A stretch of DNA of 64,000 bases from a virus. The stretch covers positions 28,414 to 92,413 of IMG/VR virus record IMGVR_UViG_3300030060_002740. One strand, 5' to 3'. The position numbers and the translations under genes are program-made. This document shows, one piece after another, positions 15,426 to 36,774 of the stretch (position 1 is the first letter of the stretch; each line of letters opens with the position of its first letter). The notes beneath the pieces were generated by a model. The model was not told the DNA's origin. It saw nothing but the letters and a program-made list of their open reading frames with translations, and ran no database searches.

Positions 15426-16016
15426 GTGAAAAAGATGGAAAAAATTTTTGCTAGTCCCGAAAAAATTCCAGCCCATTTTTTGAAAAAAGACGGGGTAGAA
15501 TCTTTTGACCTATGGTTTGATACACTTCACAAGGACTTTCAGATGGCTAAGACCGAAGGTGGTGTTGATGATGCTATTGATGAGTTAGAGGAAGTAGTGG
15601 AAGAGTTCGACTTGACCGAGAATGAATGGGCTTCGGTTGATGATGCGTCTGATTACCTCTTTGAGCATAAGTACAAAGATAAGATGAAGAAGAGTTGGGC
15701 CGATATCATAAAAGCCACTATGAAAGCACCCCGTATTCCAAGAAAGAAAGGACAGAAAAGAAACTCAAAGGAGCATTCTGATTTGTATACAGATGAAAAC
15801 CCAAAAGGAACTATTCATGGTTTGGGATTCAAGGATGAGGAGAAGTCTAGGAAGTCTGTTTCTAAGATAAAGAACAGTAACAGAAGTCATGCACATAAAA
15901 CACAAGCCGCAATAGCAATGGAGCAAAGAGCAAGGGAAATGGGTAAGACCAAAGAAGCAGCGATATACAGGAAGTTCATAGAACAGCAGAAAAAGAAAAC
16001 CGAGGCTAGAAAATGA
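15426..16016 (+). CDS. hypothetical protein with acidic N-half and basic C-half, joined by an SWADIIK motif
   Basis: C-half HSDLYTDENPKGTIHGLGFKD resembles, from recall, widespread marine phage proteins. Confidence 0.65.
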   Translation: MKKMEKIFASPEKIPAHFLKKDGVESFDLWFDTLHKDFQMAKTEGGVDDAIDELEEVVEEFDLTENEWASVDDASDYLFEHKYKDKMKKSWADIIKATMKAPRIPRKKGQKRNSKEHSDLYTDENPKGTIHGLGFKDEEKSRKSVSKIKNSNRSHAHKTQAAIAMEQRAREMGKTKEAAIYRKFIEQQKKKTEARK

Positions 16017-16288
16017 AACAGTGGTTGATTAGAAAGTTGATTGCCTTAATGGGTAACACCTATGTTTGGTTGGACAAGAAGTTAGTTCATCCTGATGGGC
16101 CAGTTCTAGGTTTGGAGATTGATGATGACTTTGCTAAGATGAGCAGATATGAGTTATGTTGTCACATTGAGGATAAGTTCGGATTAGAGAGAGATTCTTT
16201 TTGGAAGTTGGAATCTACACAGAAGATAAGGTTCTGTTCTCAAACTGCAAGGAACATACTTACGCCAAAAAAGAGGAAGAAGAAATGA
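16013..16288 (+). CDS. hypothetical protein
   Basis: 91 aa with 4-bp overlaps. Confidence 0.6.
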   Translation: MKQWLIRKLIALMGNTYVWLDKKLVHPDGPVLGLEIDDDFAKMSRYELCCHIEDKFGLERDSFWKLESTQKIRFCSQTARNILTPKKRKKK

Positions 16289-16542
16289 GTAACTTAAGCA
16301 AGTTTGATAGTCTTCATCATAGTGCGACTATGCAGGGTTCACTAAGCACCGATGATGATTCTTGGTTTAACATACTAAGAATGGGAGGGGCGGTAACGTC
16401 AACCTCAAGTGGTACATCGGCATTATTCAACAATAAAACGGGAGGGGGAAAAAGACGTGGTAAAAAGAAAAAGAGTCTCAAAAGACAAAGGTATCAAGAC
16501 GAAACTACCAGACGGGACAGACGCTACAATCAACGTAAGTAA
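16285..16542 (+). CDS. basic hypothetical protein (SWFNILR motif)
   Basis: ATG overlaps the previous stop codon. Confidence 0.5.
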   Translation: MSNLSKFDSLHHSATMQGSLSTDDDSWFNILRMGGAVTSTSSGTSALFNNKTGGGKRRGKKKKSLKRQRYQDETTRRDRRYNQRK

Positions 16543-17569
16543 AAGGTCTTTTGGACAGAATTTCCAAGAGTGGGAAAGAAAAGCCGGAGGACTTTCAGGT
16601 GATTCAATTGGGATGATTAGTCCTGAAGCCAGTAACATGACTTTACTCGATGTAGTGAAAGAACAAGGAGTAATTGGAAGAATCAAGGGAAAGAAGGGAA
16701 GTAAGATAAAGGGCAAAGGTGGAGTTGCTATCTTCAAGGCGTTGAAAACTATCTTCAATAAACCTGATATGTCCAAAGGACAGTTACCTGCCTTGAAAGC
16801 ATTGGATACACTAATGAATGCGATTGAGGGAAGTTCTGCTGACCCTCGTAATATTGTATTCTCTAATCCGGTGGATTGGTCAGAAGACACTGGAAGAGTC
16901 TTGGATACTGAACCTGTTTATGGACATTATAGAACTGATGAGTATGAAACTGTTAGAGATTTGAAAGACGAGGATGTTCCCGCAGTTTCATCAGAATGGT
17001 ATAATGATTCCAAGAATGCTGCCACACCACCATTTTGGCAAGCACTTTATGGTAAGGGAACTAATGCTCCTTTCAATTCTCCAAGCCTACATATGATAAT
17101 TAAACAGGCTATCAAAGATATTGGGGATGCCCCAATAATTATCAACAAGGACAACCCTGTTCCCATCGAGGGTAAGAAGGCTGCAACTACTGCCCTCACA
17201 ATTTCTGTATTGAGAGGCATAGTGGAAACAGAGTTGAATAATGGAAAAGAGGGTAAGTCATTTCCTGATAGTAAAGTTAGAAGATTGATTATGGGGCAAC
17301 CGTTTGATATTAGAACGGAAAAGGAATCCGAAGCAGTCAAGTCCCTCAAGAAACTGAACATTCCAAATGACATCGAGGAGTGTTGGTTCAAGTTATCAAG
17401 AAGACAAGTTAAGTTGATGGCTTTTGAACTTGCTAAGAGAAAAGGCGTGAAGATGCACTTCAGACAAGCAAGTGGAGATATTGCAAGAAGCCCATTGGTC
17501 TTCGGAGAAAGACCTGACCCTGATACTGAGAAGAAATCTCTTGATTGGAAAGGGATGTTAGCGAGGTGA
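16457..17569 (+). CDS. hypothetical protein, putative virion-internal
   Basis: GTG start after GGAGGGG; ends KKSLDWKGMLAR. Confidence 0.7.
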   Translation: MVKRKRVSKDKGIKTKLPDGTDATINVSKRSFGQNFQEWERKAGGLSGDSIGMISPEASNMTLLDVVKEQGVIGRIKGKKGSKIKGKGGVAIFKALKTIFNKPDMSKGQLPALKALDTLMNAIEGSSADPRNIVFSNPVDWSEDTGRVLDTEPVYGHYRTDEYETVRDLKDEDVPAVSSEWYNDSKNAATPPFWQALYGKGTNAPFNSPSLHMIIKQAIKDIGDAPIIINKDNPVPIEGKKAATTALTISVLRGIVETELNNGKEGKSFPDSKVRRLIMGQPFDIRTEKESEAVKSLKKLNIPNDIEECWFKLSRRQVKLMAFELAKRKGVKMHFRQASGDIARSPLVFGERPDPDTEKKSLDWKGMLAR

Positions 17570-17663
17570 TTAGTGTTGAAGTGTTGTAAAATAATAGGTT
17601 CATTTGATAATTGGTCTAATACAATGTGTCCTTATTGTGGGAATTACATAGAGAGGTGAGAGT

Positions 17664-17774
17664 TTGTTTTGGGGAGTCTGTTGTTTTTGTTTAGCAGTAA
17701 CTCCCTTTGAGTCATCAACTTCTTCCGGTGATTTTTGTGTTACATGTGGAACATACGAGGGGGCGTTATTTTGA
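17664..17774 (+). CDS. Zn-ribbon microprotein (36 aa)
   Basis: Manual translation MFWGVCCFC...CVTCG; GAGGTGA RBS. Confidence 0.4.
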   Translation: MFWGVCCFCLAVTPFESSTSSGDFCVTCGTYEGALF

Positions 17775-18430
17775 CTGTAACAAGAAAAAGATGTCGTCTT
17801 TGTATGCACGAAGACAGGGAAATCTTTGAGAGAGATTTGGAGAGTATGCACCTTCACCCTGATGACTTGGACAGTAGGATGAACTGGCCTAGTGGGACAT
17901 CTGCCAAACATCAGAGAAATCACATGGGAGGTTATGCTGATGCCTCTAACCCCAAGTGTGCATTGTGTGTTTATGAGAATCGTTCAGAAATTGAACAGGA
18001 ATTGTATTCGGGAGATATGACTCCTGAACTTGCCGCCAAGATAGTGGGTTGTTCAAAGGAGCAAGTTGTTAGACACATCAAGAAACATACACAACCATTG
18101 GTGCAAAAAGCAGCAGCACAAATATTGGCGACAAAGGAAGTCAATGAGATTGATACCCTAAGTGGTAACATCACTAACCTTGAGAGAAAGTTGGAAGCCT
18201 TGTTTGAGATAGAAGACTTAGACCACAAATCAATTGATTCACTGACAAAGTTAGCGAAGGAAGTAAGAGAGTCGCTAAAGTATCTAATGGAGTTCAAGGG
18301 TAAACTCGTTCACAGAAGACAAGACACAATCATTGTTCATCAAATGCAGATTATCAAAGAAGTGTTAGCACAAAACCATCCCGAAGTTTGGTTGGATGTC
18401 AGAAAACAAATGGAGGATAAGTTACAATGA
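17771..18430 (+). CDS. putative terminase small subunit (duplicated Zn/HTH module plus coiled coil)
   Basis: CRLC...HQRNH and CALC...HIKKH repeats, helical C-terminus; upstream of TerL. Confidence 0.5.
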   Translation: MTVTRKRCRLCMHEDREIFERDLESMHLHPDDLDSRMNWPSGTSAKHQRNHMGGYADASNPKCALCVYENRSEIEQELYSGDMTPELAAKIVGCSKEQVVRHIKKHTQPLVQKAAAQILATKEVNEIDTLSGNITNLERKLEALFEIEDLDHKSIDSLTKLAKEVRESLKYLMEFKGKLVHRRQDTIIVHQMQIIKEVLAQNHPEVWLDVRKQMEDKLQ

Positions 18431-20226
18431 GTTGGTCAAGGGTTCTGAAGAGAAAGACTCTACGGGATAAGGTAGTTCAAGCATCCAAGGATGGTAACTT
18501 CGATGAACTTCTTCAGAACCATAAACCCGCACAATTGCGTAGAGCAGTAAACGAATTATTAGACATTGATATGCCACAAGAGAGGTTTCAGCCTTTGTTG
18601 GATAAACTTGGAACTGCTAAGAGGGTTGATGGTAAAAGAAACCCTGAATATGAAGACCCTAATACTAAGGAAATAGAAATGTATGAATCCTTCATGAAAG
18701 GTAATCACGAAGAATTACTTACATTCCTAACAGAAGGAGGAAGAAGCACAGTAACAAATAGAATTTCACGCTTGATGAAATGGAACTCTGAGAACGGAGA
18801 TGCACTTCTGAAATACGTCAAGGATAAACCCGAACTCTATGGCTACATCACTAAGGACATAACACTCACACTACCCAATAACTTTGATAGGGATATTTTG
18901 GATGATTACCAATTTGTAATGGAGAGAGGTATCAAAGTAACTTTACCTGAGTTCCTAACAATAGAACAAGGAAAGGCACTTGCAGGTGGTCAGCCATCAC
19001 AACCAATTGAGAGAACTGCTTTTGCTAGAATCTTCAAAGCCCCTGAATACAAGGATAAGATTGTAGCAACTTCTGTCAAATTAGAGGAAAGCACAATTGA
19101 TGGTGGATTTGCAGCAGATTATCTGAACATGGTTGTAACAAATCTACGTGGTAATACAAGAGAACCATTCATGCCTACATTCTCAGTATCAGAAGCCCCT
19201 TCTTCGGGACAAATTAGAGAAGCACAAAAGTTGTTCTTCGGTGCTAAGACTGGTGGAGGCACAAGTAGGATGTATCCCGCAATGGAGTATATTCTAAGAA
19301 ATGAGAAGTTGGACTTGGATGTTGGTTTTGTTAGAACTCAAACTAAGGAAACACTACAAGAAGTGGAGTTGGCTAATAAGTTCCAAAGGGCAGAGATAGA
19401 TGATGAGGAATTGAATAAGTTATACAATAAGTTTGTAAAAACCAAGACTGATGAGGATGGTAATGTAACAAGCGTTACAGGTTATGCTAACTTCAAACGA
19501 GCAGTTGTTGATGCAGGGCTTGAAGACAGGTATAACAAGTTCTTGAAAGAAACCCAAGTCAGACGCTATACTCTACCTGTTGAAGTTAGAGATGCTTTAG
19601 TTGCTATGATTGACAATGAAGCAGATGATAAACAAGTTAAATTGGTAAAGGCCAAATTAGGGCATCTATTCTCAAAGGTTGGTTTCAAGCGTTCAGTCAG
19701 AGAGATGCGTAAGAAGAAGGTAAACTACGGCGACCCTGATAAGATAAAAGAGGCTCTACTTTCTATGGAAGAAAAAGCAGAGGGAACTGTTTCTATAACA
19801 GACAAACTATTCCTTGAGAGAGTTAACTTCCTATTCGATGATGTAGACCAAGACCCATTGGGTAATTTCCTTTCGGGAATGGATAGTGGTGGTAAGTTTA
19901 GATTAAGGGATATGCAACTTTCTTCTAAGCAGGTTCTACAATTTTCAGATTTATTGGTTATGGTTCTACAATTATCGAGAAAGATGTTGAGGGATTCTAA
20001 GTTGCAAATGTCCTTGAAGAGATTACTTAGAGAAACAGATGCTAAGAAAAAGAAAGAAACGGAAGACGAGTTTAAGACAAAACTATCAGAATCATATTCT
20101 AAAATACATAAAGGTGTATTAGACGCAATAAGAAGAAAGATGGTGCAAGTGATGGAAGAACCATTGCTACACAATAAATCAGGAGCGATTCAACCATACG
20201 ATTGGATTAACGAGAACAGGAGTTGA
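18427..20226 (+). CDS. hypothetical protein, putative virion-internal (MSWSRVLK N-terminus)
   Basis: 599-aa charged helical ORF. Confidence 0.75.
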   Translation: MSWSRVLKRKTLRDKVVQASKDGNFDELLQNHKPAQLRRAVNELLDIDMPQERFQPLLDKLGTAKRVDGKRNPEYEDPNTKEIEMYESFMKGNHEELLTFLTEGGRSTVTNRISRLMKWNSENGDALLKYVKDKPELYGYITKDITLTLPNNFDRDILDDYQFVMERGIKVTLPEFLTIEQGKALAGGQPSQPIERTAFARIFKAPEYKDKIVATSVKLEESTIDGGFAADYLNMVVTNLRGNTREPFMPTFSVSEAPSSGQIREAQKLFFGAKTGGGTSRMYPAMEYILRNEKLDLDVGFVRTQTKETLQEVELANKFQRAEIDDEELNKLYNKFVKTKTDEDGNVTSVTGYANFKRAVVDAGLEDRYNKFLKETQVRRYTLPVEVRDALVAMIDNEADDKQVKLVKAKLGHLFSKVGFKRSVREMRKKKVNYGDPDKIKEALLSMEEKAEGTVSITDKLFLERVNFLFDDVDQDPLGNFLSGMDSGGKFRLRDMQLSSKQVLQFSDLLVMVLQLSRKMLRDSKLQMSLKRLLRETDAKKKKETEDEFKTKLSESYSKIHKGVLDAIRRKMVQVMEEPLLHNKSGAIQPYDWINENRS

Positions 20227-20230
20227 GCAA

Positions 20231-23017: not shown

Positions 23018-23021
23018 TAAG

Positions 23022-23522
23022 ATGTTAGAGTTTCAAGAGATGTCTGAGGATGATGCCGTTAGAGTATTCTTAGATGATGGGTATTATGAATACCAAAAAA
23101 GAAGAGAGCGTTACCAAAAAATATCTCCTAATTCATCTTGGGCTACTGCACCCGCAAGAATGTTTGTTGGTTTTTTAGAAGATAAACCAGTAGGAGTTAT
23201 TGGTTTTTCTAAATACAAAGGAGTTTTGTTAGGAGCAGGTATTCACGTTAGAAGAGGATTTAGAGGTAGAGGACTATCACAATTATTAGTTCAAAAACTC
23301 ATAGAGGAAAAAGGAGGTCAAACTCTTTTTGTTAATATCGGCAACCCAAGAATTGCTAACACATATAGAAGATACGGATTCAAAGATATGAATGAAGAAG
23401 AGTTACCCGATGAATCAAGAAATGCTATTCAAGGATTAGAATTTGCCGACCAAGTTCAGAAGTGGGTTTGGGGAGTTCATCGAGATGTTTGGTTTGATGT
23501 GGTGAAAAATGGAATTAGATGA
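23022..23522 (+). CDS. GNAT-family acetyltransferase
   Basis: GIHVRRGFRGRGLSQLL acetyl-CoA motif A and N..IANTYRRYGF motif B. Confidence 0.8.
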   Translation: MLEFQEMSEDDAVRVFLDDGYYEYQKRRERYQKISPNSSWATAPARMFVGFLEDKPVGVIGFSKYKGVLLGAGIHVRRGFRGRGLSQLLVQKLIEEKGGQTLFVNIGNPRIANTYRRYGFKDMNEEELPDESRNAIQGLEFADQVQKWVWGVHRDVWFDVVKNGIR

Positions 23523-24942: not shown

Positions 24943-24953
24943 GGGGGTAGTGC

Positions 24954-26282
24954 GTGACGGAGGAAGATAGCGAAATCTTGGAAGATATTCTTGAGCGAAC
25001 AAAGCGAAGAGAGACTTTAGACCAAGAAATCGAAGAACGCACTAAGGATTTGAAACGCGCTTGGCTATCCAGTGTTCCAATAGAAGACCACAGTATTTTG
25101 GAAAAGAAATACGCAGAAGATTTCAGAATGAGCCTATCTGATGCAAGAAAGGAATTGAAGTATACTCTGACTAAGTATGAGATTGAGGGTTCTGATATTC
25201 CAAAGACAATAAAGGAATTGAAAAAATACCGAAGGACTCTCAAAGGAGAGGACAAGGTGAAGATTACCAATTCGATTGAGAATTTAATCAAGGCATATTC
25301 TGACCACTTGGATAAGAGTATGGATGACATTTACTGGATTAGTAAGTATAAACCAGTTCTCAAAGACATGACTTGCTCGGAAGATAATCTAATCAAACTA
25401 TCATATGTTGATGATGCAAGTACAAGGCGAGAACTAGTTGATACTCTCTGTAAATATTGGGAAGCAAAAATAGAGAAGGAGGGTATGCCCTTCAATTCTG
25501 ACTACTCAAGATTAACAAAGGAAATGACTAACACAAAAAGACAATTCAAAAGATTGCTGAAGAAGCATATGAAAACCACTTCTCCAAAGGATAAAATCAA
25601 ACATCACATTCTAAAATCAATATGTGAAGAACCCGGAATATCAGCAAGGCAGATACATGAGAGACTACCGAAGAGTCTCTTTACTAGAACAACACCAAAC
25701 GTTATTGCTAAAATGGCTAAACAGGAAAACATCACCACTGTTAATGGTGCTTTCTACAAGTTTAGTGATGAGATAAAGAAAGACATCTATGCCTATACTG
25801 CTGCGTTTATTGATTCTGATGGCTACATTACAATGGATAAGAATTACAATCCAAGAGTCGGTTTGGTTGCAACAGGAGAAAGAGGCAAGGCTTTCATGAT
25901 GGAGATGCACAAGTCATTGGGATGTGGCAGATTGCATCTTGACCAAAAATCTCCACAGGACACAAGACCAGTAAACAGGTTGAACTTTTATTCGGGTGCT
26001 GATGTTACAGAACTACTCACAAAATGTAGGCCACATTTCAGAATGAAAGGTAAGAATGCTGACATTCTATTAGAGTTAATCAGAATGAAGAAATCGCATA
26101 AGAAGGCTGATTGGTACAAAGAAAGAAGGGAAGAACTATTCAAGTTGATGAAATATGAGAATCATAAAGACCACGTAGGTTATGATTTCACACGATATGA
26201 TATTGATATTGATAGTGTTGCCAAGTTACATGATAATTGTAAGATGGGTGCAATGGATGTTATTGAGGGGGTGATTGCATGA
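24954..26282 (+). CDS. LAGLIDADG endonuclease-domain protein with helical N-terminus and winged HTH
   Basis: YTAAFIDSDGYI motif, MHKSLGCGRL, LLTKCRPHFRMK; HTH-like PGISARQIHERL. Confidence 0.75.
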   Translation: MTEEDSEILEDILERTKRRETLDQEIEERTKDLKRAWLSSVPIEDHSILEKKYAEDFRMSLSDARKELKYTLTKYEIEGSDIPKTIKELKKYRRTLKGEDKVKITNSIENLIKAYSDHLDKSMDDIYWISKYKPVLKDMTCSEDNLIKLSYVDDASTRRELVDTLCKYWEAKIEKEGMPFNSDYSRLTKEMTNTKRQFKRLLKKHMKTTSPKDKIKHHILKSICEEPGISARQIHERLPKSLFTRTTPNVIAKMAKQENITTVNGAFYKFSDEIKKDIYAYTAAFIDSDGYITMDKNYNPRVGLVATGERGKAFMMEMHKSLGCGRLHLDQKSPQDTRPVNRLNFYSGADVTELLTKCRPHFRMKGKNADILLELIRMKKSHKKADWYKERREELFKLMKYENHKDHVGYDFTRYDIDIDSVAKLHDNCKMGAMDVIEGVIA

Positions 26283-26524
26283 CTTGGTTTGACGTTCTAA
26301 AAAGAAAGTCTGGTAGGCGAGGAAAAAAGGCTCGCAAGAAGAGAAAGAAAGGTAAGTCAAAGGTGAATCAGGCTGGTAATTACACAAAGCCCACTATGAG
26401 GAAGAAACAGTTTGCAAGAATCAAAGCAGGTAGCAAAGGTGGCCCTGCGGGTAAGTGGTCAGCGAGAAAGGCACAGTTGCTTGCTCGGAGATACGAGAAA
26501 GCAGGTGGTGGCTATCGTGACTGA
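26279..26524 (+). CDS. highly basic small protein (MTWFDVLK)
   Basis: K/R-rich; NYTKP...WSARKAQ...YEKAGGGY. Confidence 0.75.
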   Translation: MTWFDVLKRKSGRRGKKARKKRKKGKSKVNQAGNYTKPTMRKKQFARIKAGSKGGPAGKWSARKAQLLARRYEKAGGGYRD

Positions 26525-26864
26525 TTGGTTTGATATCATTAGGAAAAAAAGTAAACCCCGAAGAAGAAAGGGTGCTAAGTCTAGTAAGAAAAAACTTAGG
26601 CGTAGAAAACAAAAGAAAAATCTGAAGCAGGGTCAACAGGCTCTTGTAGAATGGACTGATGAAGAGTGGGGAAGTGCAGAACAACACAGTGCCAAAGAAA
26701 AAGGAAAAAAAGCACCCTCCAAGACAAAGGGCAGATATATGCCAAAGGCTACTTACAAAAGAACTCCTAAATCTAGGTTGAAGTATCAAGATAAAAAGAA
26801 AAAAGAGGGACGTAAGAAAGGAAAGCAAAACGTCCCAACAGGAAAGAAATTCTCTCAGAAGTGA
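26517..26864 (+). CDS. highly basic small protein (MTDWFDIIR)
   Basis: GTG start after AGGTGGTG; K/R-rich; EWTDEEW...RYMPK. Confidence 0.7.
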   Translation: MTDWFDIIRKKSKPRRRKGAKSSKKKLRRRKQKKNLKQGQQALVEWTDEEWGSAEQHSAKEKGKKAPSKTKGRYMPKATYKRTPKSRLKYQDKKKKEGRKKGKQNVPTGKKFSQK

Positions 26865-26868
26865 TATT

Positions 26869-27174
26869 ATGGATTGGTTTGAAGTTCTAAAGAAAAAGGG
26901 CAAGCACCCTGCTTTGAAGAGAGCGGGTGTTAGTGGTTTCAGTAAACCAAAAAGAACTCCTAAGCATCCTAAGAAATCTCATGTGGTTGTCGTCAAAGAT
27001 GGCAAAAAGGTAAAGACTATTCGCTTTGGGCAACAAGGTGCTGATACAGTAACCGAGAAAGACCCAAAGGGAAAAAGAAAAAAGAAACAAGCATCATTCA
27101 AGGCTCGCCATGCTAAGAATATTAAGCGGGGGAAAATGTCTGCGGCGTATTGGGCTAACAAGGTAAAGTGGTAA
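26869..27174 (+). CDS. highly basic small protein (MDWFEVLK)
   Basis: KPKRTP...IRFGQQG...SFKARH...SAAYWA..VKW. Confidence 0.75.
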   Translation: MDWFEVLKKKGKHPALKRAGVSGFSKPKRTPKHPKKSHVVVVKDGKKVKTIRFGQQGADTVTEKDPKGKRKKKQASFKARHAKNIKRGKMSAAYWANKVKW

Positions 27175-27176
27175 GT

Positions 27177-28835
27177 ATGGTAGAAGAAAGAAGAAGATTT
27201 AGTTTAACAAATTTGTTTAGGCAAACTACGCCTAAGCCCGCAGATAGAACAGTATACAATCCGGGTATACAAGAGAGAGATAATTCATATCTTTTGACTA
27301 GTCCAATCATCTATCACATAGTATCTCAATCAACTATTGTTAGAACCTGTATCACTCAGTTGAAACAGGAGATATTCAGAAGAGGATATCATTGGGATTC
27401 TAAGTTTGCTCTAAAATGTAGAAATTGTGGTAAGGAACACGAAAACACAGTAAAGCAATGTGTTGAATGTGAAAGCACTGATTTGGCAAAGCCTAATGTT
27501 GAACAACTAAAATATGCTAAAGAGTTCTTAGATGGGTATGTGAATTGCTCAGAGCAGATGTTTATTGATGTCCTAAAGGAACTTGAAGATGACTTGAATA
27601 TAATGGATGACGCATACTTGGTAATGGTAAAGGAATACTATGCCGATAACAACTCCAAGGTCAGGATGCACAGAATAAAGGAAGTATACAGAGGCGACCC
27701 AGTTACTATGCACATCTATTCAAACGATTTGGGAGAAAGAGGCAAAGCCGGATATACTTGTTTAAGACATAGAGATAGAGTATATTCAAGTCCAACTGAA
27801 CTTTGCGAAACTTGTAATTCAGAACTCTATCCTATTCATTATGTTAACAGGGTAAATGGTGAAGAACAGTATTTCGTAAAGGGAGAAGTTCTACACTTCA
27901 GCAAATACTCTCCAAGTAGATTATATGGACTTTCACCTATAATCACTCTATGGAATAATGTTACAACATTGATTGCTATGGAGAATTATGTTAACTCATC
28001 ATATACCAAAGCAAGAATGCCGAAGGGACTTCTTGCTGTTCAAACAAGAAACATGGATTCGATGAAGTCATTTTGGCGTGGTGTCAAAGAAAAGATGGAG
28101 CAAGACCCACACTTCATACCTGTAATGGGAATAGAGGGAGAAGGCGGTAAGGGTTCTGTTGAATGGGTCAAGTTCATGGACAGTCTAAAAGAAATGGATT
28201 ACATACAAGTTAAGGATGATTTGAGAGATAGGATTTCAGCATTCTATGGTGTGAGTAAAATCTTCATGGCAGATAACTCTGCAAGTGGTGGATTGAACAA
28301 TGAGGGTATGCAAGTATTAGTTACTAATAGAGCAGTTGAAATGGCTCAAACAATTTGGAATAACTATGTGTTCCCATTTATGACGGAAGAATTTGGTATA
28401 ACTGATTGGCGTTTGAAACTACCACCATCCGAAGAAGAGGATGAAATTGCAGTTCTACGTAAAAGAGAGATAGAAGTGAATGTCGCTGCTGCAATTAAAA
28501 ACTTAGGATTTGAAGTAGACATGGATGATGAAGGTGGATTCATTTACACAAAACCTGAACCTAAAGAACCAACAGAAGGAGAAGGTGAAGAAGGTAGCGA
28601 AGAAGTTGAATTAGACCCATACGCCGGAACTGATATTGATGCCTCTCAACTAGGACAATTACAAGAACAAATGATGGGTGGTGGAAATAAGTCTGAGAGC
28701 AAACCTCAAGAGAACCCCCCCGCTACGAGAAACAAACCATCTATGGCAACTGGGCCGGATAAAAGATTTACAGGATTACCAAGAGAAGCCGGAAATGAAA
28801 ATGTTGACGAAAGAACAGAGAGGAGAGTAGGATGA
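27177..28835 (+). CDS. portal protein with Cys-rich insertions
   Basis: Downstream of TerL; EVLHF...YGLSPI, ISAFYGVS, LNNEG portal-type motifs; acidic C-terminal tail. Confidence 0.85.
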   Translation: MVEERRRFSLTNLFRQTTPKPADRTVYNPGIQERDNSYLLTSPIIYHIVSQSTIVRTCITQLKQEIFRRGYHWDSKFALKCRNCGKEHENTVKQCVECESTDLAKPNVEQLKYAKEFLDGYVNCSEQMFIDVLKELEDDLNIMDDAYLVMVKEYYADNNSKVRMHRIKEVYRGDPVTMHIYSNDLGERGKAGYTCLRHRDRVYSSPTELCETCNSELYPIHYVNRVNGEEQYFVKGEVLHFSKYSPSRLYGLSPIITLWNNVTTLIAMENYVNSSYTKARMPKGLLAVQTRNMDSMKSFWRGVKEKMEQDPHFIPVMGIEGEGGKGSVEWVKFMDSLKEMDYIQVKDDLRDRISAFYGVSKIFMADNSASGGLNNEGMQVLVTNRAVEMAQTIWNNYVFPFMTEEFGITDWRLKLPPSEEEDEIAVLRKREIEVNVAAAIKNLGFEVDMDDEGGFIYTKPEPKEPTEGEGEEGSEEVELDPYAGTDIDASQLGQLQEQMMGGGNKSESKPQENPPATRNKPSMATGPDKRFTGLPREAGNENVDERTERRVG

Positions 28836-29161
28836 GTTGGGAAGATACGATAAGAAAGAATGTGTTTGATAAAAACCCTAATGATATGACTGACTTTATG
28901 AATGTCAGTCCTAGAATGGAAAGGGAAGCAGAAAAGAGAACACAGGGGGAAAATAGATACAAGATAGAGAGAATGTTACTGGATGCTTCTGTTGCTTTAG
29001 GTAATGCAGAAAAGTTGTTAACTGAGTTAAATAGAGAACATAAAGATGAATTAAACTCTACTGAATATATGAAAGGAGATAGATTAAAGAATAGTATGTC
29101 TAAACTCATAAGAAGAAGTGTAAAGAACATCTCAGTTGTTGAAAAAGAATTGTTTAGGTGA
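28832..29161 (+). CDS. hypothetical protein (MSWEDTIRK)
   Basis: 109 aa. Confidence 0.65.
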   Translation: MSWEDTIRKNVFDKNPNDMTDFMNVSPRMEREAEKRTQGENRYKIERMLLDASVALGNAEKLLTELNREHKDELNSTEYMKGDRLKNSMSKLIRRSVKNISVVEKELFR

Positions 29162-29167
29162 TTTAGA

Positions 29168-29569
29168 ATGAGTTGGCGGGTTATTCTGAAAGAGGTTTCT
29201 TGTCCTTTAGCCACTCAAGATTTAATGTTGAATACAAAAAATAGAGATGCTTCAGTAAAAAATCCTAACATCAGATATGGCCCACTTAATCTTGAAGATG
29301 AAGATTATTGGGTAGAATATGGAAAGAGATGGAATACTACTGCTGATGTAGCAAAAGAATCTAATTGTAGCAATTGTGTTGCTTTTGATATATCACCGAG
29401 AATGGATGACTGTATGCCGTTGACTACTGATGAAGATGGATATTTAGGTTACTGTTGGATGCACCATTTCAAATGTCATTCAGCAAGAACATGTTATACT
29501 TGGGCTAAAGGTGGCCCAATAGATGATGATGCAACATCAAAAGAAAATCAAATGAGGGGTAAACAATGA
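29168..29569 (+). CDS. Cys-rich phage protein (MSWRVILK)
   Basis: CPLATQD...YGPLN...CSNCVAF...GYCWMHHFKCHSARTC. Confidence 0.7.
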   Translation: MSWRVILKEVSCPLATQDLMLNTKNRDASVKNPNIRYGPLNLEDEDYWVEYGKRWNTTADVAKESNCSNCVAFDISPRMDDCMPLTTDEDGYLGYCWMHHFKCHSARTCYTWAKGGPIDDDATSKENQMRGKQ

Positions 29570-29682
29570 ATTGGTTCGATGTATTAAAGAAATTAAAAGG
29601 TAAACAAAAACTACTTGACAAAGATGATGATGGAGATATTGATGAAGAAGACTTCAAAGCACTAAGGGAGGAGAAGGAATGA
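29566..29682 (+). CDS. microprotein with EF-hand-like DxDxDG loop (MNWFDVLK, 38 aa)
   Basis: Manual translation ...LDKDDDGDIDEEDFKALR; ATGA overlaps at both ends. Confidence 0.7.
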   Translation: MNWFDVLKKLKGKQKLLDKDDDGDIDEEDFKALREEKE

Positions 29683-29933
29683 GTTGGCAAGATATACTAA
29701 AAAACGAGATGGACATAAAGACATTAGAAGAAATAGCAGGTGAATTGGAGAAAGCAGTTGAAGCACATGGTTCTCAAGCAAAGAGAATCAGAGAGATAAT
29801 TTCTCAATACAAGAAAGAACCACCCACAAAAATGCCCTCACCACAATACATAACCAATAGGCCAAAAACCGCAGGGCAACAGTCTATGATAGATAGAGCA
29901 ACTAGGAACTTGAGAGAACAAGAGAGAAGGTGA
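29679..29933 (+). CDS. hypothetical protein (MSWQDILK)
   Basis: 84 aa. Confidence 0.7.
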   Translation: MSWQDILKNEMDIKTLEEIAGELEKAVEAHGSQAKRIREIISQYKKEPPTKMPSPQYITNRPKTAGQQSMIDRATRNLREQERR

Positions 29934-29937
29934 TTAC

Positions 29938-30165: not shown

Positions 30166-30174
30166 GTTGGTTAC

Positions 30175-32004
30175 ATGACATGGACTAGTATTCTCAAGAG
30201 AAGCGAAATCCATGCTGATGTTATGTGGGCTTACAATCAAGCCCAACAACAAGAATCAACCAAGTTTCCTATTGCAGATTTGCGTGAGGCGCATCGTGCA
30301 TTAGACGATGCAGCCGAAAAAGACGCAGAAGAAAGAGATGAATCGGAGGCTAAGGTTACAAATATTTTGAGTAGAGGTTTTTTCTCTAACTCAAGGGATA
30401 GGTTAACTCCTGTTGAGTTTGAGAAGGATAAAAGAAAGTTCGTCAACAGAATAAATAATTTAGAAAGATTACTAAACAAAAGAAGTACAGAATCTATGAA
30501 ACTTCCCGAAGGACAGACATTGAACATAAGAGATTTAGATGCTATAAGAGAAGAAAACTCTTTGCTAGAATTATTGTTTGAGGGAGAGAAAAAAGTTCTC
30601 GTTAAACTAAGAGAAGGATTAGGAGAAAGAAAAGATGCTGCCATTGACTTTGCAGAAAAACTTACTGATGCAATGGAATCATGGGATAGGTACGGAGATA
30701 ATACCCGTAGTAGAAATCTTGCTGATAACCTAAGACCACGACTATCATCAGGAGCAAAGAACCTACAAGCATATTTGTTAGAGGGAAAGGGTCGAATTAG
30801 AACTGAGGTTTCTTCTGTATTTCACGAAAAGAATGCAGAGTTCGATGATGAAAGTAAAACTTGGAGTCCTCTTAAGGTATATCCAAAGGGAAACACTTCC
30901 TTGGAATTACTTGAGCAAATATACTCTTATCTTAGAATACCAATAAAAATATCAGGAGAAGATGAAGCCGGAGAGAAGGCAATACGAAGTTATTTCTCAT
31001 TGGATGTGGATGGTTTTGTAGAAGAGATTCATGATATGATAGGCAGTGATGACCCAAAGATTCACGCTAAATTATTCTTTAACAAGGATGATGTTTTGAG
31101 AAAGATATACAGAATAGTTCCTGAAATCATACAGATTGCAGAGGAAAAGATGGATGAGAAGGAAAAGAGGGATTTGCTTACTAAGCATTTTGACGTGTTG
31201 GAGTATCTGATTAGGATTAATTCTTTGACTGGTGATTATAGTAGACTCAAAGAAAGCAGGTTGGACAAGGTGAAAAGATTTGCTCATATGCGAAAGGGAA
31301 AAAGAAATCTCAGTATGAATAGAAACTTCCCGATGTTAGAAGATGCGTATGAGGAGTATGAGGCAAACCCAAGTGAATATCATGAAAGTGGTAGAAAACA
31401 AAGAAGGGCAGGGAAAGACGCTTCTTCTCTACAAACCCTTGGATTGAAACCAATACCTGACGGAGCAGTTAGGGGAACTTACCCTAAGAAAAAGAAGGTA
31501 GAAGACTTACAAAGAGAAATTGTTTCTTTCGGGGAAAAAGCAAGGGAAGCAATCAAAGAAGAACAAAAGAAACTTGCTGTTAACAAGCCTAAGACAGAAA
31601 AAGAAAAAATTCAAGCAGAGAGAACTTTCTTACTTCCTCTCAAGAGGCAGATAGAGAGATACACGAAAGAAGTAGAAGAACTAGGGTTACTGTTTGAGGA
31701 TACTCCTGAGTCTGCTGCCGAGTTCCATGACTATGGAGATTTAAGTTCTGATAACTTAGATGAAAAAATAGAAGAAGCAAAGGAGCAATTGAAACTCGCA
31801 GAGGAGGCAAAATTGGAAGAAGAGGAATTAGAAACATACAAGGATTATGTTGTTACTCTGCAAACTATCAAGAAACTCCCCCAAATTAGAGAAACAGTTG
31901 GTAGGATTCAAAGCATAATAGATTCTGCTAAATATCCTATAATGTCTGAGCAACAATCATTAGATGAACCCTCATCTGAAGATGCAAAGGAGGAGTCTGC
32001 ATGA
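30175..32004 (+). CDS. large charged helical protein (MTWTSILK)
   Basis: 609 aa. Confidence 0.75.
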   Translation: MTWTSILKRSEIHADVMWAYNQAQQQESTKFPIADLREAHRALDDAAEKDAEERDESEAKVTNILSRGFFSNSRDRLTPVEFEKDKRKFVNRINNLERLLNKRSTESMKLPEGQTLNIRDLDAIREENSLLELLFEGEKKVLVKLREGLGERKDAAIDFAEKLTDAMESWDRYGDNTRSRNLADNLRPRLSSGAKNLQAYLLEGKGRIRTEVSSVFHEKNAEFDDESKTWSPLKVYPKGNTSLELLEQIYSYLRIPIKISGEDEAGEKAIRSYFSLDVDGFVEEIHDMIGSDDPKIHAKLFFNKDDVLRKIYRIVPEIIQIAEEKMDEKEKRDLLTKHFDVLEYLIRINSLTGDYSRLKESRLDKVKRFAHMRKGKRNLSMNRNFPMLEDAYEEYEANPSEYHESGRKQRRAGKDASSLQTLGLKPIPDGAVRGTYPKKKKVEDLQREIVSFGEKAREAIKEEQKKLAVNKPKTEKEKIQAERTFLLPLKRQIERYTKEVEELGLLFEDTPESAAEFHDYGDLSSDNLDEKIEEAKEQLKLAEEAKLEEEELETYKDYVVTLQTIKKLPQIRETVGRIQSIIDSAKYPIMSEQQSLDEPSSEDAKEESA

Positions 32005-32345
32005 GTTGGCAAGATGTTCTAAAGGAAGAGGGATTCTACTTCGCTCCTGTTTTCATTGAGAAACTCGACGGTAAGCAGAAAAAGAAGTTGAAGAAACTCA
32101 TACAGAAGGCCCAACCAACAAACATGATGGGTCAAGACATGACTCAACTCTCAGATATAATCGAAGAACTGAAAGATATGGATTTAGTAAAATCCGACAA
32201 GAAACTAAGTAAAACCGTAGAAGGGTTTGATGAGAAGAACTTGGATATCCTCGCTTCTGCCTCTGAGTTGAGGAAAGACTACGAAACATTATTCACACAA
32301 CTAAGGAAAATGGTTTATCCACCATCAAAGAAAGGTAAGCAGTGA
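32001..32345 (+). CDS. hypothetical protein (MSWQDVLK)
   Basis: 114 aa; GGAGG RBS. Confidence 0.7.
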   Translation: MSWQDVLKEEGFYFAPVFIEKLDGKQKKKLKKLIQKAQPTNMMGQDMTQLSDIIEELKDMDLVKSDKKLSKTVEGFDEKNLDILASASELRKDYETLFTQLRKMVYPPSKKGKQ

Positions 32346-32349: not shown

Positions 32350-32430
32350 ATGAATTGGAAAGAAGAACTAAGAATACGGATTAAAGAAAGTTTATCTAAA
32401 ATGTATGAGGAGGAAGCATACAATGAGTGA
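32350..32430 (+). CDS. microprotein (MNWKEELR, 26 aa)
   Basis: Manual translation; fills the gap and carries a variant of the W motif. Confidence 0.4.
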   Translation: MNWKEELRIRIKESLSKMYEEEAYNE

Positions 32431-32644
32431 CGAGATGTTGATGCTGATGAAAGAATTGGTAGACAAAGTGAAAGCCTTAGAGCAAGCAGTTTACCACAAA
32501 GACAACCTATTGATGAAATCAGGATTTGTTGTTTACGATTCACCTACACCCACAATGAATAGTAAAGATGTTGTAGGTAGTAGTACGATAAAAAAGAGTA
32601 TGGATTGGGAAGACATACATGAATTAGTAAAACAGATGGAGTGA
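32423..32644 (+). CDS. hypothetical protein ending KKSMDWEDIHELVKQME
   Basis: ATG after GAGGAGG; C-terminus resembles the scaffold C-terminus. Confidence 0.7.
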   Translation: MSDEMLMLMKELVDKVKALEQAVYHKDNLLMKSGFVVYDSPTPTMNSKDVVGSSTIKKSMDWEDIHELVKQME

Positions 32645-32868: not shown

Positions 32869-32895
32869 ATCCCTACGAAAGACTTGAGGGGTCAG

Positions 32896-35487
32896 ATGCC
32901 GCAAACAGGAATAGAGTTTGAAAAAGAAACTAGTGGCCTCACAAAACAGGTCTTAGATTTCTTTGAGAAGGTTCGTTATTCCTATCTTTCAGCAAGAGAA
33001 AATCCCGATGACTACGGGGATGCTTGGAAAAAAACAGTAAAGGATATCAGAGAACAATTAGATTCTCTTGATGATTTCAGCAATGAGTTGAAAACTTATG
33101 TCAAGGAAGACTTGGCTCAATCTGATGAAGCATACAATCCAAAGTCAAGACAAGCAAAAGAATTGTACGAAGCGGTAAAAGAACTTAGGTTCAAATCCGA
33201 AAAAGTCAGTGACCCGTTTTCAAAACAACTTGGTGATGATGTAATACCTAAGTTGTTGAAGAATGAAGCATTATTCGCTTATTTTATTCATTATGCACTA
33301 CGCTCTCATGCAAATGCTTTACCTGAAAAAGCGTGGAAGGCAGTGGAACTCAAACCTGACAAGATAACTCAAAACGTGATGGGTTTGGATTTAGAGCCAA
33401 AGGACATACCGCTATACATCATAGAACATTATGGCGGGGAAGAGGAAGACACAAGAAGAGTAGAGAGTAAGTTCAAGGGGGCTTACAAATTATTGGAGAA
33501 GGTGTATGCCTCTCAATATGATGAGGGTAAATGGGAGAATCTTGTTGAGTTAGATATTGCTAAGAGTGAGCAAAAGCAAGAAATTGATTTTATCGTTCCC
33601 AACAAACCAATGTATAGAATCTTTGAGATAGATGACATGAAGGAAATCAAGGGTCTTACTGGTGAGTACATTGTCCAAGAGAAGTATGACGGGATGAGAA
33701 TACAACTTCACAAGTTCAATGGTAAAGTCAGAATATACTCTTTCAATGAAAAAGACATTACAGATAAGTGTTCAAAACAAGTTAAGCAATTAGAAAAGAA
33801 AGCATTTGGGGATTGTATCTTAGATGGAGAACTCATGTTGTTTGACGGTGATGAACCACTACATAGAGCAGATACAATAGCCCATGTTTTCAAGAACAAA
33901 AAGGGTGGTGAACTAAAAGCACACGTCTTTGATATTATGGTTCATGAAGGAAAGAACATCGCTGATGAAACCCTAAGAGAAAGAAATAACATTCTTCTGT
34001 ACCAATACGCTCAACATTCATCAGAAGACTTAGCATTCCCATCTAAGAAAGATACAAGGATTGCTGACTCCATAAAAGAAGTAGAAACCTATGCTAAAGA
34101 AATAATGCAGTTACCTGCATCAGAAGGTGTGGTAATCAAGGATATAGAATCAACATACTACATTGGGGTTAAGAAAAATCCTAAGTGGATTAAGTGGAAG
34201 AAGTTCGTTGACTTGGATGTTATAGTTTTAGATGATAAGAAAACAAAGAGCAACTTACATTCCTACACAATGGGAGTTGGGCCAGTAAATGCTGAAACTG
34301 CTAGGAACTACAAGACTGTTGAGTTTGAGGATAAAGACTACTTAGAAGTAGGTAAGGCTCTCAATACAAAACAATCAGTAAAGATTGGTAGCATAGTCAG
34401 AGTGAAAGTTGACGAGGTTAAAAAAGGAAAGGACGGTTTCAAATTGTTCTCTGCTAAAGTTATAGAGATACCTGAAGTAACACAATCGGATACTGTTGAA
34501 ACATTAGAGCAATTAGCAAGTAAGACAAAGAAATCTCTCAATGCAATCGGATACACCTTTGGAGAAACAGTAGGCGGTGCATTTGAAGTTACATCAGGAA
34601 TGAAGAACCCAAGAGGTCAGACTAAGAAAGATGTAAAGAAAGGATATTACATTACAGACCACATACATGGAACTGCTGAGATTATTCTAAAGGAGGACAT
34701 GGATGGTTTCACAATCTATGGGTTTGAGGGAGATTCTCTTATGCAGAAGAATGCTCTATACAACATAGATATGTGGAAAGAACAAGTGGTTAGTATAATG
34801 AAAAGTAAACGTTCTACCTTTAGATTGGCTATCCGCAATGAGATATTAGACAGTGGTAGAGATAATCTAAGGTTTGAGCAGATATTAGATTATGTCAAAG
34901 ACAAACATCAAGGAACCTTTGAGGATTTATTCGACTCAGATGAAGGAAGATTAATGTCTTGGATGAAACAACAAGAAGATTTGGTTTATCTTCATCCCAA
35001 CAAGTTTACTGCAAGAGAAGACGTATTGGAAAAGGATGTTGAAGAATTACAAAAAGAAGAAATGGGAAAGTATACAATTAATCTTAGAGAAGATAATAAT
35101 GTTGATTTAATCATAGAATACAAAGACGAGCGTATGGGTTGGACTATTGATATTGAAGAGTCAGAAGACATATACGAGTTGTTTGGTAAATCAGGTAAGT
35201 ATCCGGCTATTGTTATGAAGAATGCAGGTGAGCCTAAGAAAGTCTTAGATAAAGGAAATATAGAATTAGGAATTCAAAAAGATGGATACCATGAATATAG
35301 ATTAGATGGAGATAAGTTCCAAACAAGAATGCACTTTAGAGTAATTCCTTTAGATGAACAAAAGAGTTGGATAGCATGGACAGGAAAGAAACAGGAAATG
35401 TTAGACGATGAAGAGAACCCAAATAAATGGAATCTGAATGAAGACTCTTATGCTCAATTACCTTTCCCTTCGGATAAAAAAGAGTAA
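32896..35487 (+). CDS. lig: ATP-dependent DNA ligase with N- and C-terminal extensions
   Basis: Motif I EKYDG, III ILDGEL, IIIa HVFDI, IV EGVVIK, V WIKWK, followed by an OB-fold-like region. Confidence 0.9.
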   Translation: MPQTGIEFEKETSGLTKQVLDFFEKVRYSYLSARENPDDYGDAWKKTVKDIREQLDSLDDFSNELKTYVKEDLAQSDEAYNPKSRQAKELYEAVKELRFKSEKVSDPFSKQLGDDVIPKLLKNEALFAYFIHYALRSHANALPEKAWKAVELKPDKITQNVMGLDLEPKDIPLYIIEHYGGEEEDTRRVESKFKGAYKLLEKVYASQYDEGKWENLVELDIAKSEQKQEIDFIVPNKPMYRIFEIDDMKEIKGLTGEYIVQEKYDGMRIQLHKFNGKVRIYSFNEKDITDKCSKQVKQLEKKAFGDCILDGELMLFDGDEPLHRADTIAHVFKNKKGGELKAHVFDIMVHEGKNIADETLRERNNILLYQYAQHSSEDLAFPSKKDTRIADSIKEVETYAKEIMQLPASEGVVIKDIESTYYIGVKKNPKWIKWKKFVDLDVIVLDDKKTKSNLHSYTMGVGPVNAETARNYKTVEFEDKDYLEVGKALNTKQSVKIGSIVRVKVDEVKKGKDGFKLFSAKVIEIPEVTQSDTVETLEQLASKTKKSLNAIGYTFGETVGGAFEVTSGMKNPRGQTKKDVKKGYYITDHIHGTAEIILKEDMDGFTIYGFEGDSLMQKNALYNIDMWKEQVVSIMKSKRSTFRLAIRNEILDSGRDNLRFEQILDYVKDKHQGTFEDLFDSDEGRLMSWMKQQEDLVYLHPNKFTAREDVLEKDVEELQKEEMGKYTINLREDNNVDLIIEYKDERMGWTIDIEESEDIYELFGKSGKYPAIVMKNAGEPKKVLDKGNIELGIQKDGYHEYRLDGDKFQTRMHFRVIPLDEQKSWIAWTGKKQEMLDDEENPNKWNLNEDSYAQLPFPSDKKE

Positions 35488-35532
35488 ATATTACTATTAC
35501 TTCATATAGTAAGAGTGTAAAACTTACCGACA

Positions 35533-36774
35533 ATGCTGATGATGGGTACTCCTTTACTAAAGGCTGAGAGTAACCATGAGTTTAGTATTTTGAAGTCTGA
35601 CAACCTAATTATTGGTGGTTATGCTTCAATCGAAATAGTGGACAAGCAGAATGATTTAATCACACTTGAAGCACTACAAGATGCAGTAAACAAATACATG
35701 GTTGATGAGAAATACAGAAATGTAATGTCTAACCATTCTAATGTGCAAGTTGGAGAAGTTGTAGAACAGTATAGAGATGCTAACGGAGTTTTGCACAAGA
35801 CTGCGGTAGATGACGTAGGATTCTATGTTGTAATAAAACTACGAGATGATATTGAGAAAGCAAAAGAAATTTCAAGAGGAATTAGAAAGGGAACTCTACG
35901 TTCCTTTAGTATTGGAGGACAAGCCATTTCAAAGAGACAGAGAACTTCTGATGAGTATGGGGAGTACAATGAGATAGACAGGTTGGAACTGCATGAAGTT
36001 ACAATCTGCGAGAAGGGGATAAACCCCGAAGCGAAATTCGACATTTTAAAAATGGAGGAAAAAAACATGAGTGAAAAGTTAGAAAAAGCACTTGAAGAAC
36101 TGAACGACCTGATGAAACAGGTTAGTGATGTTACTTCAACAGAAAATGAAGACGTAACGAAGAACGAAATGGCCTATATGGACACCAAAGACGACGAGAT
36201 GGCTATGGCTGATGATGAATCAGGCAGCATGGACAAGGGTATGTACGGCGGCAAGGATATGGACAAGGCAGATGATGAGGAGATGGACGACGACACGAAG
36301 AAGGAACTTGATGAAGATTCAACAAGAGACTACGATGCCGGAGAGTTGGTTGTAGATAACGGCAACCCCACTGATACTCCAACCGAACTAAAGTCATTTG
36401 GTCTTGATGGAGCAGACTTTGCTACACTAGACCTATCTGCTGAGAACGTAGAAAAGGCATATGCAAAGTATAAGGCGGAGAAAATGGAAGCAATGGCTTA
36501 CGATTCTCTATCAAAGCAATTTGAAGCCCGTCTTACAGAAGAGTTGTCTGTAAAGAAAGCGGAAGCAGAAAAAGCATCTTACGATGCTCGCACAGATGTA
36601 GCGGCACTAAAAGAAGAGTTTGCTGAACTACGCAAGTCATTGTCCGAGAAGGACACAGAAATAAGGAAGGCACAGGAAGTAGCATTTGCTCTACCTGATG
36701 GAATGCCAACAAGCATTGAGGCGGCGGCTGATATGTCTTGGGAAGATATTCACGCATTAACAAGAGGTGATTAA
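35533..36774 (+). CDS. prohead protease (HK97-type) fused to a scaffold domain
   Basis: GYAS..IVDKQND, MSNH, SFSIGG, LHEVTIC..GINPEA; acidic coiled-coil C-half; directly upstream of MCP. Confidence 0.88.
   Translation: MLMMGTPLLKAESNHEFSILKSDNLIIGGYASIEIVDKQNDLITLEALQDAVNKYMVDEKYRNVMSNHSNVQVGEVVEQYRDANGVLHKTAVDDVGFYVVIKLRDDIEKAKEISRGIRKGTLRSFSIGGQAISKRQRTSDEYGEYNEIDRLELHEVTICEKGINPEAKFDILKMEEKNMSEKLEKALEELNDLMKQVSDVTSTENEDVTKNEMAYMDTKDDEMAMADDESGSMDKGMYGGKDMDKADDEEMDDDTKKELDEDSTRDYDAGELVVDNGNPTDTPTELKSFGLDGADFATLDLSAENVEKAYAKYKAEKMEAMAYDSLSKQFEARLTEELSVKKAEAEKASYDARTDVAALKEEFAELRKSLSEKDTEIRKAQEVAFALPDGMPTSIEAAADMSWEDIHALTRGD

Follow-up and report, generated by a model that had tools for sequence, protein, structure and literature searches.

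A short terminal peptide on unrelated head-module proteins of a magrovirus genome: a candidate capsid-targeting signal

Why should many proteins with no other visible likeness begin, or end, with the same short peptide, and why should their genes lie among the head genes of a virus? The question is raised by a stretch of 64,000 nucleotides (nt), hereafter the window, which is part of the 92,413-bp virus record IMGVR_UViG_3300030060_002740. The record is labelled as a magrovirus, a tailed virus of marine group II archaea, and the label fits the size, composition and archaeal-type genes of the genome. Among archaeal viruses of the surface ocean, magroviruses rank with the most abundant, and we know of no cultured one. 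The peptide, here called the tag, has the eight-residue N-terminal consensus M-[STN]-W-x-[DEN]-[IVT]-[LIV]-K. We propose, with a probability of about 0.6, that it is a capsid-targeting label by which proteins would be loaded into the interior of the procapsid. The proposal draws on sequence and analogy: the tag is restricted to the head module, it is terminal and modular, it resembles the tail of a protease that itself has to get into the prohead, and there are known precedents for such a signal.

Ten open reading frames (ORFs) of the window begin with M-[STDN]-W-x-x-[IVT]-[LI]-[KR]; an eleventh, at 15684, begins with MKKSW, and a twelfth candidate, at 32350, is weak. The original prediction for this DNA had listed N-terminal sites at 18427, 26279, 26517, 26869, 28832, 29168, 29566, 29679, 30175 and 32001, all of which are present in the sequence. 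It had also included the micro-ORF at 32350, which is less secure: it carries Glu where Ile or Val is expected, although relatives keep a tagged micro-ORF at that place. The SWADIIK that had been taken for an internal copy is present, but it is most likely the N-terminus of the gene at 15684, since orthologues begin there. The ORF that contains it (15426-16016) joins a piece like the C-terminus of an HNH-like family (EWASVDDASDYLFEHK) to the tagged gene, and looks like the remnant of a cassette rearrangement. Another supposed internal copy, SWFNILR (~16360), is of uncertain status; it lies in an out-of-frame ORF (16201-16542) that overlaps two called genes, is followed by a very basic tail, and could reflect a frameshift, an alternative gene or chance. 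The C-terminal cases in the 386-residue protein, the GNAT acetyltransferase, the 79-residue protein and the protease-scaffold are genuine and kept in orthologues: 9/12 orthologues of the 386-residue protein have DW[RK]x[IVM][IM]K at the C-terminal end, and those of GNAT keep W[FW]xx[IVLM][KR]. The presence of the LK-type motif at these two C-termini indicates that the signal is terminal and not bound to the N-terminus. Most tagged starts have a Shine-Dalgarno-like GGAGG, GAGG or GGTGA 5-12 nt upstream. The genes concerned are as follows (models are AlphaFold2, AF2).

15684..16016, plus strand: tagged 110-residue protein, MKKSWADIIK; start internal to ORF 15426-16016, cluster 30 orthologues start at the tag.
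16409..17569, plus strand: 386-residue protein with the C-terminal LK-type tag LDWKGMLAR (~17540-17566), by orthologue comparison.
18427..20226, plus strand: tagged conserved 599-residue protein, MSWSRVLK; no domain match.
23022..23522, plus strand: GNAT acetyltransferase (PF00583, E 4e-9) with the C-terminal tag VWFDVVK (23490-23507).
26279..26524, plus strand: tagged 81-residue protein, MTWFDVLK.
26517..26864, plus strand: tagged 115-residue protein with a GTG start, MTDWFDIIR; the same GTG-start gene is found in the related locus L001.
26869..27174, plus strand: tagged basic 101-residue protein, MDWFEVLKKKGK; weak DUF5754 match downstream of the tag.
28832..29161, plus strand: tagged 109-residue protein, MSWEDTIRK.
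29168..29569, plus strand: tagged 133-residue protein, MSWRVILK.
29566..29682, plus strand: tagged 38-residue protein, MNWFDVLK; the tag is in 10/10 members of cluster 27.
29679..29933, plus strand: tagged 84-residue protein, MSWQDILK.
30175..32004, plus strand: tagged conserved 609-residue protein, MTWTSILK; relatives have MTFMDVLK or MSYMDILRK.
32001..32345, plus strand: tagged conserved 114-residue protein, MSWQDVLK; AF2 model.
32350..32430, plus strand: micro-ORF of 26 codons, MNWKEELR, weak fit to the tag; relatives have 27-residue MIDWKIVLRQR ORFs at the same place.
32405..32644, plus strand: 79-residue scaffold-like core protein with the scaffold-type C-terminal motif MDWEDIHELVKQME, by orthologue comparison.
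32884..35487, plus strand: 867-residue protein with an ATP-dependent DNA ligase domain (PF01068, E 1.5e-28).
35533..36774, plus strand: S78 prohead protease with a scaffold-like helical region and the C-terminal MSWEDIHAL at 36733-36759, by domain match and AF2.

Could so many matches arise by chance? We compared the window with 80 related IMG/VR loci whose portals are 72-95% identical (a related-locus search with P0132 as the query gave no match), and our own greedy ORF calls gave 1,486 plus-strand proteins in the 81 loci. The tag stands at the N-terminus of 335 of these proteins, against 0.35 expected from composition shuffles, and the motif lies in the last 16 residues of 31, against 1.1 expected; this positional enrichment at both termini excludes chance. 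Internal matches number 120 where 20.7 are expected, and most of them come from two conserved sites, one in the major capsid protein (MCP) and one in the ligase protein. By strand, the N-terminal matches in the related loci are divided 440 to 0 between the head-gene strand and the opposite strand. Across the whole 92,413-bp genome the N-terminal tag is confined to window positions 15684-32345, with no match in the 28 kb upstream of the window, the leftward replication block or the tail block, which bears out the earlier statement that leftward-block and tail proteins lack the motif. We also surveyed genomes with the DNA form of the tag, ATGNNNTGGNNNNNNRYNNTNAAR, using the reversed pattern as control. 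Matches numbered 8-19 per genome in 19 related genomes (G001-G005, G010-G019), nearly all on one strand, and the control gave 0-1; G020, which is 21% complete, had one match. In the mapped genomes the matches fall within ~20 kb around the portal. In G016 (the contig of L335, 184,733 bp) tag matches repeat at a spacing of ~92-95 kb, as though the assembly had put together a pair of genome copies or a pair of related genomes. A search of 596 Gb of prokaryote genomes with the tag in its commonest DNA form gave 36 single scattered matches, against ~26 expected by our own calculation, and none in Poseidoniales; in IMG/VR it occurs in more than 119 stretches among the matches listed. The tag is thus restricted to viruses, and a signal belonging to the host cell is ruled out by the chance-level matches in prokaryote genomes.

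What is conserved is a peptide, and it is carried by proteins that are otherwise unrelated. After removal of the first 12 residues the tagged proteins fall into ~131 BLAST clusters, and an alignment of 54 representatives leaves only M1 and W3 invariant. As had been supposed, the proteins are mutually unrelated beyond the tag, and paralogy is ruled out; a short terminal peptide common to otherwise unrelated proteins is also a feature of the T4-type capsid-targeting sequence (CTS). In a Trp-aligned logo the tag reads M, S (54%) or T or N, W, F/Q/E/K, D/E/N, I/V/T, L/I/V and K (92%), after which the information falls to background. When the positions W+4 and W+5 were left free in the pattern, W+4 was hydrophobic in 242/243 distinct N-termini and W+5 was Lys or Arg in 95%. 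Arg replaces Lys in 4-7% of tags, which amounts to a Lys:Arg ratio of 13:1 against a background of 1.9:1. Many of the apparently untagged members of tagged families merely have Phe or Tyr in place of Trp, as in MTFMDVLK. The tag lies outside the Pfam matches to DUF6321 and DUF5754, and in relatives it stands ahead of a PAP2-like phosphatase that is soluble and has its catalytic motifs intact. In the AF2 model of the 114-residue protein, the tag is predicted as a helix of residues 3-9 (at lower confidence), followed by a linker (10-18) and a helical bundle.

Besides paralogy, a DNA or RNA element (a translation context or a recombination site) or a secretion or membrane signal would also give a likeness that is not a functional peptide. 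The second codon, when Ser, is AGT in 97% of tags, and 24 conserved bases could aid cassette exchange as a by-product. The same codon is, however, AGT in 72% of untagged genes and AGT or AGC in 88% of them, while AGT makes up 23% of all Ser codons in all loci, so the bias reflects a general purine preference after ATG. At positions 5-8 the synonymous codons match the genome background (GAT 69% vs 69%, AAA 61% vs 55%), from which we take selection to act on the peptide; together with the general codon-2 bias this rules out a DNA or RNA element. A membrane-like segment occurs in 0/131 tagged clusters, compared with 12/157 untagged ones, and the absence of hydrophobic segments, with the copies at C-termini, rules out a membrane or secretion signal. 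These non-peptide explanations are already largely refuted by the clustering, codon, C-terminal and hydrophobicity data, and we give them next to no weight. We concluded that the clustering, codon and position data support a modular signal at the peptide level, on either terminus of unrelated soluble proteins and confined to the head module.

That module was assigned with Pfam and PHROGs on the plus strand, and comprises GNAT, the large terminase (TerL), an HNH-like protein, the portal, the ligase-domain protein, the S78 protease and the MCP. The members not given above are:

23509-24942, plus strand: large terminase (TerL), by Pfam/PHROGs.
24954-26282, plus strand: HNH-like protein, by Pfam/PHROGs.
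27168-28835, plus strand: portal, by Pfam/PHROGs.
36777..38171, plus strand: MCP of HK97 type, by identity to the MCPs of HVTV-1 and HCTV-1; presumed docking surface.

The identity of the window MCP to those of the haloarchaeal tailed viruses HVTV-1 and HCTV-1 is 23-25%. Gene order is conserved as 386-residue protein, 599-residue protein, 928-residue protein, GNAT, TerL, HNH-like protein, portal, 75-residue protein, 609-residue protein, 114-residue protein, 79-residue protein, cluster-11 protein, ligase, protease and MCP. The tagged genes are either conserved members of this series (599, 609 and 114 residues) or fillers of variable slots between conserved head genes, and judged by gene position the carriers belong to the head (late) gene set. 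No tagged gene lies downstream of the MCP, with one exception, a match in G003 just past the expected MCP position. The tagged-gene content differs between the window and L001 although their portals are 95% identical, which argues for fast turnover of the tagged genes. Two additional terminal motifs were seen in this module: the conserved 75-residue protein downstream of the portal (29938-30165) has its own conserved C-terminal motif ([KR]-x-E-N-I-P-F, E-N-K-W or N-N-P-W-G), and TerL ends in a conserved G-[LI]-N-F; both, from their sequences, may be further docking motifs.

How far does the tag extend among relatives? Clades P0127 and P0122, with proteases 46-53% identical to that of the window, have 8-18 tags, and no such tag was seen in the head module of the halovirus HVTV-1, the MCP relative. 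The sister clade, P0130 (protease 42% identical; four genomes of 95-107 kb), has no N-type tags. It has one giant ORF of 1,857-2,143 residues directly before the protease (L098:3514-9945, L153:4392-9965, L135:4173-9971), which could, to judge from its sequence, be a polyprotein alternative to separate tagged cargo genes. A conserved acidic stretch with a [VIL]-[LM]-K-P end lies ~100 residues from the C-terminal end of this ORF; a repeated 'LLK' tag was sought inside it and not found.

We then asked where else in the head a related peptide occurs. The C-terminal ends of the 413-residue protease and the 79-residue protein share the pattern [AS]-[EDK]-M-[SD]-W-x-D-I-H-[NK]-[LM]-[VA], as MSWEDIHAL in the protease-scaffold and MDWEDIHEL in the 79-residue protein. 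The motif of the latter persists in 58 orthologues, and the tag-less sister clade has it too. An AF2 model of the protease, based on 30 homologues, places the protease domain at residues 23-175, a disordered acidic region at 206-300, two long helices at 303-384, and, after a linker, a final helix at 403-412 that begins at the Trp (pLDDT, the predicted local distance difference test, ~65-72); the domain order of the model is that expected of a protease fused to a scaffold. Among the 30 homologues (down to 26% identity) 11 columns are invariant, W403 being one of them, and in a search among 1.8 billion representatives the tail motif turned up again on many distantly related S78 protease-scaffold proteins; used as a query against PDB sequences, the protease-scaffold gave nothing usable. 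The tail thus has the features of scaffold and protease C-terminal helices, being conserved, at the extreme C-terminus, and predicted to fold as a helix that follows a flexible linker. Five positions are common to the N-type tag and the scaffold-type tail: Met at W-2, Ser/Asp at W-1, the Trp, Asp/Glu at W+2 and Ile/Val at W+3. The first of these, the Met, is 76-93% conserved in the C-terminal scaffold-type motif, and the sequences suggest that the Trp of N-terminal tags may stand at residue 3 because the initiator Met fills this position.

With these observations, the working of the tag could be pictured as follows. It would form a short exposed amphipathic helix starting with a helix-capping residue, and serve as a portable docking label. 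Placed on either end of a soluble protein, it would bind a site inside the assembling procapsid, on the inner face of the MCP or on the scaffold core, and this site may be the same as, or adjoin, that of the C-terminal helix M-S-W-x-D-I-H-x-L of the protease-scaffold and 79-residue protein. The head would then enclose 8-19 small proteins and a few enzymes per genome, in a set that changes, and these would probably enter the host together with the DNA, like the internal proteins of T4.

Several points weigh against this proposal. The original prediction held that the tag mimics the scaffold helix; the five shared positions support it, but there are two discrete classes, L/I/V-K and H-x-L. They are never mixed at W+4/W+5: His at W+4 occurs in 0/243 distinct N-termini, and no scaffold tail has a hydrophobic residue followed by Lys. 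Mimicry is therefore only partly supported, and the two classes may bind different sites or partners. Clade P0130 keeps scaffold-type tails, on the protease and on a small scaffold-like protein, in genomes that have no N-type tags, so a receptor for the tails does not alone explain the tags. Covariation of tag and tail across clades was uninformative, as the tag consensus is nearly invariant and the one tag-less clade keeps the tail. The strong preference for Lys over Arg is not predicted by simple helix docking. Lastly, nearly all tagged proteins are without functional assignment, so their cargo-like activity cannot be judged. The distinct class of the N-type tags and the tag-less sister clade that keeps its tails would also suit a different role, in which the tag docks proteins to a shared partner other than the capsid interior, such as the portal, the terminase, a protease exosite, a virus factory or a host hub after delivery. 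W-x-x-phi-phi is a common helical docking pattern. Against this, the tag occurs only among head-assembly genes, was not seen at gene starts in prokaryote genomes, and has five positions in common with the tail of the protease, which needs to enter the prohead; we consider such a partner unlikely.

The Lys that ends the tag raises the question of whether the head protease cuts there. The capsid-targeting reading can be refined in this way: the tag would be both loading label and cutting site, with the S78 protease cutting after Lys (P1 Lys, P2 Leu/Ile/Val) and freeing the cargo from the shell wall. The MCP of HK97 is itself cut after Lys103 by an S78 protease. The drop of information to background directly after the Lys and the Lys:Arg ratio of 13:1 against 1.9:1 fit such a cut, and in T4 the head protease cuts off the CTS peptides (PMC9026906). 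On the other hand, there is no preference at the residue following Lys, and the C-terminal tags of GNAT and the 386-residue protein would stay attached after a cut at Lys. LK look-alike sites near the MCP N-terminus and in the protease had been offered in support of cleavage, but these sites are not evidence for it: the TLK of the MCP reads TIA in relatives, and the ILKM of the protease belongs to the last beta-strand of the S78 fold, found as 'FDILK' in many unrelated phages. That strand, A-K-F-D-I-L-K (36043-36051, residues 171-173), is close to the tag core W-F-D-I-L-K, perhaps by chance, for unrelated S78 proteases have kept the strand as well. Cleavage after the Lys is possible, but we hold it doubtful.

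A further use of the Lys is suggested by the ubiquitin-like system of the virus (E1, E2-like protein, ubiquitin-like protein (Ubl) and JAB; window 1-6014), of which one member is needed here:

652-1242 of the window, minus strand: ThiF-like E1 of the ubiquitin-like system.

The tag would then be a recognition or acceptor site of this system, with the Lys as acceptor. The E1 was found in 11/11 tag-bearing genomes tested (G001-G005, G010-G015) and is absent from 4 tag-less genomes, the Lys is nearly invariant, and ~29% of tags have [IVL]-K with Asp/Glu two residues on, loosely like the SUMO site psi-K-x-E. The co-occurrence, however, comes down to one contrast between clades and carries almost no weight; in 4-7% of tags Arg takes the place of Lys, only head-module genes carry the tag, its likeness is to protease and scaffold tails that have no Lys there, and its strict terminal position is left unexplained for an acceptor site. 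We regard an acceptor role as improbable. As a target mark, the tag would have its W-x-x-I-L-K read by the E2-like protein and the Ubl put onto the Lys, with tagging coupled to capsid loading or release. Tag and Ubl genes do go together across the large magrovirus clade, and its sister clade lacks both, but this version is no better placed, with very little to recommend it.

To return to the proposed capsid-targeting label, which proteins would be carried? A function search (Pfam and PHROGs with 54 representatives, ESM Atlas with the 599- and 609-residue proteins, Foldseek with the model of the 114-residue protein) gave nothing usable. The 609-residue protein is fast-evolving and was seen only in magroviruses. 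The 867-residue ligase protein has a conserved tag-like WKKTVK at residues 48-53 (33025-33042), with the family form W-K-x-[TI]-V-K at ~residue 44-53; this internal motif is present in 42/74 orthologues, and its sequence suggests that the ligase protein may itself be packaged cargo. The same protein has a separate conserved C-terminal W-[DN]-I-x-x-D-[KR]-Y-x-x-L, and its gene is conserved just before the head protease. In L044 (5930-6520) and relatives a soluble PAP2-like phosphatase of ~190 residues is tagged and has KxxxxxxRP, PSGH and HxxxD intact; the L062 form is extended by a fused basic module at the C-terminus (WSARKAQLLAQRYKKAGGGY), which also occurs alone with a tag.

If the tag is a loading label, the proteins that a given virus brings into its host could be read from the sequence pattern alone. 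They would number 8-19 per genome and belong to more than 100 families, among them a GNAT acetyltransferase, a PAP2-like phosphatase that is soluble, and perhaps a DNA ligase. No capsid-cargo system known so far would be larger or more sharply defined, and for an archaeal virus it would be the first; foreign proteins could also be brought into HK97-type shells with a very short tag. The two main magrovirus papers, to which this comparison was confined, make no mention of such a motif.

How does the tag compare with known systems? The nearest is the T4 CTS, a peptide of ~10 residues that is sufficient for packaging and is removed by gp21 (PMC9026906). It is carried by IPI-III and Alt, according to two reviews (PMC9026906, PMC7411985) that treat Mullaney and Black 1996, and T4 internal proteins vary between related phages (PMC9026906; PMC7411985). 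Like the CTS, the magrovirus tag is a terminal peptide on unrelated, fast-changing proteins, would bind inside the prohead, as is thought for the CTS, and has a cargo set that varies between relatives. Unlike the CTS, it belongs to a virus of archaea with an HK97-type capsid and an S78 protease in place of the T4 gp21 (S77) type; its consensus is far stricter, its families far more numerous (8-19 per genome, ~131 clusters), and it also occurs at C-termini. No cleavage motif like the L/I-x-E of T4 was found in the magrovirus tags, and packaging is in their case predicted from sequence. In phage P1, a reporter that bears the first 30 residues of DarB goes into heads (PMC9024508). The tag would likewise act as an N-terminal signal that sends a protein, in P1 probably an anti-defence one, into the head; the Dar proteins have no common consensus and their signal needs more than 9 residues (PMC9024508), whereas all magrovirus tags share one 8-residue consensus.

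The magrovirus tails resemble protease and scaffold encapsidation tails known elsewhere in being a conserved C-terminal helix after a flexible linker, with an invariant Trp, on a protease-scaffold and a small scaffold-like protein; they may likewise bind the MCP. The C-terminal tail of the HK97 gp4 protease reportedly acts as an encapsidation signal, and the scaffold tails of 80alpha and SaPI1 are said to compete for the coat protein. The C-terminus of the SPN3US protease gp245 is needed for its incorporation into proheads (PMC7411985). What sets the magrovirus case apart is the spread of a related peptide, in an N-type that differs from the tails at two positions, to N-termini in more than 100 families that are unrelated to one another. 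The LIR/AIM core (LC3-interacting region/Atg8-interacting motif), [WFY]-x-x-[LIV], is matched trivially by the tag, this consensus being a loose one; such a motif also calls for an Atg8-type partner with N-terminal helices, and the co-occurrence of tag and ubiquitin-like system is one clade contrast. A different parallel is offered by encapsulins, in which cargo of diverse kinds is held on the inside of an HK97-fold shell by a short terminal cargo-loading peptide. Encapsulin shells go without portal or terminase and have a known peptide consensus; here portal, TerL and S78 protease are all present, the virus is one that packages DNA, and the motif is unlike known encapsulin peptides. Capsid targeting by a terminal peptide is therefore already known, and what the magrovirus tag would add is its occurrence in an archaeal HK97-type virus, an unusually strict consensus, a place on either terminus and a very large cargo repertoire.

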